From: Hyphomicrobium sp.
GTDB taxonomy: Bacteria > Pseudomonadota > Alphaproteobacteria > Rhizobiales > Hyphomicrobiaceae
Direction of reading: 5' to 3'
DNA: 64,000 bases
Assembly (NCBI GenBank): GCA_031365865.1
Contig: JANLYX010000018.1
Coordinates: 6,859 to 70,858 of the forward strand
The stretch's first letter is position 1, and each line of letters opens with the position of its first letter. The notes under the pieces were generated by a model. That model saw only the letters and a program-made list of their open reading frames with translations. It had not been told where the DNA came from and ran no database searches. Of the stretch, positions 32,226 through 32,340 are shown one piece after another. A program made the translations under genes and the position numbers.

Positions 32226-32284
32226 GGTCTAAGTCAGCGCCTCCTAGTGCTCGCTTGCACATGGAGGAACGCTGAGCTGAGCCG

Positions 32285-32300
32285 GTTAACGGAAGGTTAA
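32285..32300 (-). promoter_or_regulatory. putative CtrA-binding site TTAA-N7-TTAAC
   Basis: The minus strand reads TTAA CCTTCCG TTAAC, an exact consensus match, ~60 nt upstream of the transglutaminase-like gene in a 115-nt intergenic gap. Confidence 0.65.
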
Positions 32301-32340
32301 ACGGAGTTTTGGCGCCGCTTGAATGATCGGTCCCTGCTCT

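Follow-up and report, generated by a model that had tools for sequence, protein, structure and literature searches.

The question raised by this locus is whether a short gap inside a surface-polysaccharide operon carries a promoter of its own under the response regulator CtrA, and what such a promoter would do for the two genes that lie behind it. The stretch of DNA analyzed, 64 kb in all and hereafter called the window, belongs to a metagenome-assembled genome (MAG) from a freshwater sediment metagenome, with a size of 3.23 Mb, 59% G+C, 97 contigs and an estimated completeness of 96%. The nearest named IleRS sequences are those of Hyphomicrobium denitrificans and H. methylovorum (73%), and the host is, by its sequence, a member of the Hyphomicrobiaceae, a family known for budding from the tip of a stalk (PMC7200025).

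The genes of interest form a run on the minus strand. It starts upstream with genes for a CysQ-like protein, a TviB-like UDP-sugar dehydrogenase, AsnB-like amidotransferase 2 and a GT4 and continues with the following genes:

34276-36213, minus strand: AsnB-like amidotransferase
33289-34236, minus strand: SDR
32341-33273, minus strand: wbmG-like SDR (Pfam Epimerase/GDP_Man_Dehyd), the gene upstream of the gap in the same operon
31092-32225, minus strand: WbmE-like transglutaminase-fold protein of 377 aa (PF01841), a putative periplasmic glycan editor
30001-31089, minus strand: wbmF-like SDR (match to PDB 2pzj/2q1s-u, E = 2.3e-142)

With two AsnB-like genes, SDRs, a TviB-like dehydrogenase and a wbmF-like gene, this is a locus of the wbm type. 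The TGase-like protein, called the editor below, scores 32.5 bits on PF01841 against a cut-off of 23; its N-terminus is hydrophobic, and a Cys-His-Asp triad (C134/H169/D184) is invariant in four orthologues. The PDB entries matched by the last gene are ones that we take to be Bordetella WbmF, their title reading only “putative nucleotide sugar epimerase/dehydratase”. These features bear out the TGase-like and wbmF assignments made in the first-pass annotation of this DNA. A sequence search of the PDB with the editor protein gave no matches, and an AlphaFold model built from four sequences was poor (mean pLDDT 52.9).

The ATG of the wbmF-like gene follows the editor stop codon after only 2 nt (TAAaaATG, 31089-31094) and has no Shine-Dalgarno sequence of its own, and wbmF is therefore probably translated by coupling to the editor gene, the two forming one unit. 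In loci that lack the editor, wbmG and wbmF are similarly coupled (e.g., L160: 3501/3504). The usual gene order is asnB-wbmH-wbmG-wbmF without a gap, and for this reason the editor gene looks like an insertion between wbmG and wbmF. Among 80 other wbmF loci, a TGase-like gene directly upstream of wbmF and on the same strand was found once, and two more loci have weak TGase-like matches on the opposite strand. The protein is rare altogether: among 5.8 billion proteins, a single relative reached 56% identity and two others about 40%, and the gene is absent from five sampled genomes of the same genus. Compared to its relative at 56% identity, the editor has diverged far more than the SDRs that flank it (90–91%), which marks it, at the sequence level, as a fast-evolving periplasmic enzyme within a slowly evolving pathway.

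The gap in front of the editor gene is the largest between the asnB-like and wbmF-like genes, the others measuring 39, 15 and 2 nt; a gap of 277 nt is found further upstream, ahead of asnB. The gap and the elements within it are as follows:

32226-32340, minus strand: intergenic gap of 115 nt between the wbmG-like and TGase-like genes, containing the box, the predicted −10 and the leader
32285-32300, minus strand (read from 32300 to 32285): CtrA box TTAACCTTCCGTTAAC (TTAA-CCTTCCG-TTAAC), a perfect match to TTAA-N7-TTAAC
32269-32274, minus strand: predicted −10 hexamer CAGCGT, separated from the box by 10 nt and having A as its second and T as its sixth base
32260-32262, minus strand: predicted transcription start, A32262 or G32260, placed from the −10
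32234-32275, minus strand: leader hairpin in which UCAGCG/CCUCC/GUGC pairs with GCAC/GGAGG/CGCUGA, sequestering the AGGAGG
32240-32245, minus strand: Shine-Dalgarno-like element AGGAGG, 14 nt before the ATG, a long spacing

The minus strand around the box reads ...ccgtTTAACCTTCCGTTAACcggc..., and both half-sites are TTAACC, forming a direct repeat with a period of 11 bp. The box is on the same strand as the editor gene, 40 nt after the end of the wbmG-like gene, and its 3' end is 59 nt from the ATG at 32225. The first-pass annotation had proposed this box as part of an internal promoter, had called the 115 nt the only sizeable gap from asnB to wbmF, and had placed the box about 60 nt upstream of the TGase-like start and ahead of an AGGAGG. 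Its sequence and coordinates for the box are exact and its account of the gap and of the distance holds; the AGGAGG is indeed there, but at 14 nt from the start codon. Neither an Rfam family nor a terminator was found in searches of the gap. Its sequence is identical in DNA runs from related sediment samples, which thus offer no informative variation within the population, and among RNA runs none was found to contain the stretch.

A perfect box is a rare word in this DNA. The match is the only one in the 64-kb window, where 0.06 would be expected, and at least one match appeared in 5 of 100 dinucleotide shuffles of the window. The only close syntenic orthologue is found on a 6.2-kb metagenome contig (L097), which carries the relative at 56% identity (L097:2778-3923, compared with 31092-32225 in the window) in the same order as in the window: SDR, SDR, gap, TGase, wbmF and a convergent APS kinase. 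Its gap, 124 nt long, contains the perfect box TTAAGCATTTGTTAAC (2700-2715), with the ATG following after 62 nt. The two boxes agree at each of the nine specified bases but at only three of the seven in the spacer. The flanking SDRs share 90–91% of their amino acids (90% for the wbmG-like protein), while identity at their four-fold degenerate sites drops to 48% and 40%, which means that neutral positions are near saturation. When the two gaps are aligned, the one solid block consists of the box and the next 17 nt, CGGCnCAGCnCAnCGTT, and the remainder barely aligns. The flank TTAACCGG and the hexamer at N10 are shared as well. By our own arithmetic from base composition, a perfect box would arise by chance in such a gap with a probability of about 5e-4. 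Half-sites that are kept around a spacer that has diverged are the classic footprint of a protein-binding site.

Beyond this relative, the box disappears. It is absent, even with one mismatch allowed, from Bosea sp. CS1GBMeth4 and from L099/L100, L102 and L109, all with 40% protein identity or less, which do have a gap ahead of the gene, and it is also lacking at the TGase-like homologues L010 and L011 of the same-family genomes G076 and G145. Conservation of the box at orthologous loci, which the first-pass annotation had named as a check, is thus perfect in one case and fails at the more distant ones, so that the argument from conservation rests on one relative. The pattern points to rewiring within a lineage, and the box at the editor is, on this comparison of loci, best described as lineage-specific wiring of the lineage that includes the window and L097. 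As a general feature of wbm loci the box was rejected, since no perfect copy was found in the 80 other wbmF loci (640 kb from species-representative genomes).

The genome also encodes the regulator. CtrA orthologues were identified with the NF045991 model at 425 and 422 bits, compared to a curated cut-off of 350. The two ctrA copies (C30:92-763 and C13:91190-91861) encode proteins that are 99% identical, and one of them is located on a contig of 2.1 kb; the pair therefore probably reflects heterogeneity between strains or a duplication in the assembly of the MAG and not a case of paralogy.

Genome-wide, TTAA-N7-TTAAC gives 20 strand-hits that correspond to 16 distinct sites, and 15 of the 16 are intergenic according to a crude gene call. 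The sixteenth is located no more than 28 nt into an ORF that was probably given a wrong start. The spacing of the half-sites matters: when TTAA-Nx-TTAAC was counted for x = 0–15, N7 gave 20 hits genome-wide and 18 in intergenic DNA, in contrast to 0–6 and 0–4, respectively, for every other spacing. When the 534 kb of intergenic DNA were simulated with a first-order Markov model, TTAA-N7-TTAAC occurred 1.4 times on average and at most 4 times, so that the observed number represents a 13-fold excess over the chance expectation. From these controls, roughly nine in ten of the perfect intergenic boxes in this genome are selected sites. The final C is present at 16 of 21 TTAA-N7-TTAA sites, the first base after the box is C or G in all 15 sites considered, and the second is G in 9 of the 15. 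The resulting TTAAC[C/G]G is reminiscent of the known TTAACCAT word.

The genes that follow the other boxes include Tad-pilus genes (a TadG-like pilus protein and the prepilin peptidase CpaA), cell-wall genes (an AmiC amidase, a LysM-M23 peptidase, a YkuD transpeptidase and a PG-binding protein), genes for a porin, an RTX protein and a CAP protein, the GT4 and Wza-like exporter genes of a Wzx/Wzy polysaccharide locus and a kpsF-like gene that is divergent from a BBP2_2 barrel. The CtrA regulon of Brucella is similar in its content of envelope, division and LPS genes (PMC10787603). In the budding bacterium Hyphomonas neptunium, the CtrA consensus from ChIP-seq is exactly TTAA-N7-TTAAC (PMC7200025), and the same motif has been derived by ChIP in every alphaproteobacterium tested (PMC7200025, PMC4241560). 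The presence of ctrA, the N7 enrichment and the conservation in L097 argue together for a genuine site of the CtrA type under selection, and we consider this very probable for the box at the editor.

Whether the box belongs to a promoter depends on its surroundings. Fifteen box–gene pairs were oriented to the flanking gene and searched, at offsets of 3–24 nt, for hexamers of the form NANNNT. The arrangement box-N10-NANNNT was found in 5 of the 15, with the hexamers CACTGT, AACAGT, CAGCGT (at the editor), GATACT and TAATGT, while each of the other offsets was represented by none or one of the 15 boxes. The binomial probability of the N10 offset, 5e-4, applies to one offset, and 22 were tried. 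L097 has CACCGT at the N10 offset from its own box. From this layout, the box would cover about −38 to −23, i.e., the −35 region, of a predicted promoter with a leader of about 36 nt. Activating CtrA sites lie at −35, while repressing ones typically overlap the −10 or the start (PMC6180460). This geometry fits the internal promoter for the TGase-like gene and wbmF that was envisaged by the first-pass annotation. The predicted −10, CAGCGT, is weak, and a generic scan of the gap for sigma-70 TTGACA/TATAAT sequences produced no match.

The leader may add a second layer. The RNA from 32284 to 32213 folds with −28.6 kcal/mol (z = −2.65), a stability reached by 1 of 200 shuffled sequences. In the L097 gap, GGGGG aligns with the AGGAGG at a similar distance to the ATG, and the purine tract of that leader pairs with sequence just 3' of the box, but the structure is not significant (z = −1.0).

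The best explanation of these observations is that an internal promoter, activated through the box, serves the editor and wbmF, a reading to which we assign a probability of roughly 60%. We infer that CtrA is the protein that binds the box and that its effect there is activation. Phosphorylated CtrA (CtrA~P) would bind at about −38 to −23 of a promoter with a start near 32262 and would probably activate transcription of the WbmE-like editor and wbmF, with wbmF probably translated by coupling to the editor. This CtrA input would be added to read-through from the operon promoter further upstream and, being CtrA-dependent, would probably depend on the cell cycle or cell type. The outcome could be a timed or cell-type-specific change in the polymer, by analogy probably from uronamide to uronate, with an altered surface charge. 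Several points count against this reading: the lack of a sigma-70 match and the weakness of the −10, the ability of CtrA to repress as well, the single relative in which the box is conserved compared with none at 40% identity or less, and the Shine-Dalgarno-like element that is both 14 nt from the ATG and inside the hairpin.

Three other readings dispute the site, its binder or the direction of its effect. The box might be a chance match in an AT-richer intergenic stretch, without any regulatory role, as could be argued from the window shuffles, from the approximately 1.4 intergenic matches expected per genome and from the distant orthologues that lack it. Against this stand the 13-fold excess of hits and the nine specified bases shared with L097 in spite of near-saturated neutral sites, together with the shared flank and N10 hexamer, and chance is very unlikely. 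Neither does a real site have to belong to CtrA. The genome encodes several OmpR-type regulators that score 170–180 bits on the CtrA model, as well as one MucR, so that a paralogue of CtrA within the OmpR family, or a co-factor (SciP or MucR, for example), might act at the box and place the editor under environmental instead of cell-cycle control, just as Bordetella wbmE is controlled by BvgAS, an environmental system (PMC2615507). The motif, however, is the one that ChIP has attributed to CtrA wherever alphaproteobacteria were tested (PMC7200025, PMC4241560), and the genes behind the other boxes resemble a CtrA regulon, which makes a different binder highly improbable. Harder to dismiss is the possibility that CtrA does bind but represses, or that it serves as a roadblock or insulator, such that less wbm read-through would reach the editor and wbmF at high levels of CtrA~P. 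Selection on the site is clear but does not reveal whether control is positive or negative, some promoters are known to be repressed by CtrA (PMC4241560, PMC6180460), and with no terminator between the genes, there is read-through to be modulated. Repressing sites, however, typically overlap the −10 or the start (PMC6180460), while the layout here puts the box at −35, and a site in mid-operon with the sole function of blocking elongation would be unusual for a regulator of the OmpR family; this alternative is accordingly rated as unlikely.

A fourth reading is a variant of internal activation and compatible with it. Read-through mRNA would hide the AGGAGG in the hairpin at 32275-32234, and the mRNA driven by CtrA, which would start within the hairpin at about 32262 and lack the CCUCC arm, would be the sole well-translated form, so that the editor and the coupled wbmF would be made only while CtrA is active. 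The hairpin is more stable than its shuffled counterparts, the predicted start is located just 3' of the anti-Shine-Dalgarno arm, the purine tract in the L097 leader likewise pairs with sequence after the box, and no terminator interrupts the gap. On the other hand, the start is itself a prediction that lies only 1 nt beyond the anti-Shine-Dalgarno arm, the structure in L097 lacks significance, and the conserved block may be nothing more than the −10 region. It would also make wbmF dependent on CtrA, which is odd for a biosynthetic gene. Such unmasking of the ribosome-binding site would be an attractive means of tying translation to the promoter, but it is speculative and unlikely.

As a promoter, the site closely resembles those known to be activated by CtrA in Caulobacter, Sinorhizobium, Brucella and Hyphomonas, which have the full TTAA-N7-TTAAC box at −35. 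The consensus is identical, including the extension to TTAACC; the site is intergenic, and the box covers the predicted −35 region, with a −10-like hexamer 10 nt downstream. The predicted regulon of this genome is rich in genes for pili, cell-wall hydrolases, outer-membrane proteins and LPS or other polysaccharides, as in Brucella (PMC10787603, PMC7200025, PMC6180460). The differences are that the present promoter is predicted from sequence, is internal to a biosynthetic operon and occurs in an apparently non-flagellated host, without the flagellar part of the regulon. Neither flagellin (PF00669) nor FlhA (PF00771) was found in the 96%-complete genome, which makes a flagellated swarmer unlikely, and the CtrA regulon appears to have kept the Tad pili in the absence of a flagellar module. 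The suggestion in the first-pass annotation that swarmer and stalked or budding cells display differently modified polysaccharide is thus doubtful for a swarmer in the literal sense, and a glycan that differs between cell types is a conjecture.

The same annotation had compared the predicted switch to HvyA of Caulobacter, a periplasmic transglutaminase-like enzyme of the BTLCP family (PF06035) that blocks capsulation in G1 and whose gene CtrA~P activates and MucR1/2 repress (PMC4241560). There are similarities: both are exported enzymes with a transglutaminase fold and a Cys-His-Asp triad, both are concerned with surface polysaccharide and both have a CtrA box in the promoter, and a MucR is encoded here as well. 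However, the editor belongs to PF01841, not PF06035, and its gene is embedded in a biosynthetic operon, where it abuts wbmF. As an orthologue of HvyA it was rejected, since it matches PF01841 only and a genuine PF06035 gene is present elsewhere. The true member of the HvyA family is encoded at C97:33787-34260 (PF06035, E = 1e-66). Unlike Caulobacter hvyA and its homologues in Sinorhizobium, this gene lacks a box in the approximately 600 nt ahead of it, even if one mismatch is allowed.

Another parallel is WbmE of Bordetella bronchiseptica, a periplasmic enzyme of the BvgAS regulon that deamidates uronamide residues once the O polysaccharide is complete (PMC2615507). Both proteins have a core of the PF01841 type, with a triad spacing of 35 + 15 in the editor and 36 + 15 in WbmE (C165/H201/D216) (PMC2615507). 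Both have an N-terminal export signal and are encoded beside wbmF in a wbm-type locus with amidotransferases of the AsnB type, and both are placed under a master two-component response regulator, in the case of the editor by prediction. They differ in that the gene in the window sits between wbmG and wbmF and that its predicted regulator is CtrA instead of BvgA. By this analogy, in which the likeness lies in domain, triad spacing and locus context, the editor presumably acts on uronamide or uronic acid residues of the polymer, as WbmE does in Bordetella.

The editor promoter is thus a predicted addition to the CtrA regulon that is new, well supported and interesting for its target, without being a new kind of system. 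If the prediction is correct, CtrA would time the post-assembly editing of an O-antigen- or capsule-like polymer, and mother and daughter cells of asymmetric dividers could come to differ in surface chemistry while the biosynthetic pathway stays unchanged, with possible effects on attachment, phage sensitivity and grazing. It would also be the third independent periplasmic transglutaminase-fold enzyme under a master response regulator, after HvyA with CtrA and WbmE with BvgAS, and a third case would suggest a general logic for the regulated editing of glycans. On the practical side, the combination of a spacing control with footprinting of orthologues yields, for an uncultured relative of Hyphomicrobium, a predicted CtrA regulon that is small and of high confidence.

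A second surface-polysaccharide locus of the Wzx/Wzy type is found outside the window, at C84:110110-123688. It includes genes for a GT4, a flippase, a GT2, a Wzz/GNVR co-polymerase, a BBP2_2 barrel and a Wza-like exporter, and perfect CtrA boxes occur in it twice (110110 and 123660). A further box is located at C84:165422, between a kpsF-like gene and another BBP2_2 barrel. Surface-glycan genes thereby host 4 of the 16 perfect boxes of the genome.

A more far-reaching scenario can be drawn from these observations, although it is an unlikely one. In this lineage of budding bacteria, the editor gene would have been inserted between wbmG and wbmF together with its own CtrA promoter, the start of which, being inside the hairpin that hides the ribosome-binding site, would allow the editor to be translated only from CtrA-dependent mRNA. 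The charge of the surface polymer (uronamide versus uronate) would then differ between mother and daughter, or between the old and the new pole, and with the boxes at the second Wzx/Wzy locus, CtrA would be the master timer of surface glycans in the Hyphomicrobiaceae.

The editor genes of the more distant loci have a feature of their own. In the Bosea-type loci (L098:5714-5790 and L099:858-923), a different conserved stretch, GAAGTnGTAGAAnAAAC ... GTTGGAG, takes the place of the CtrA box ahead of the editor gene and may be the site of another regulator.
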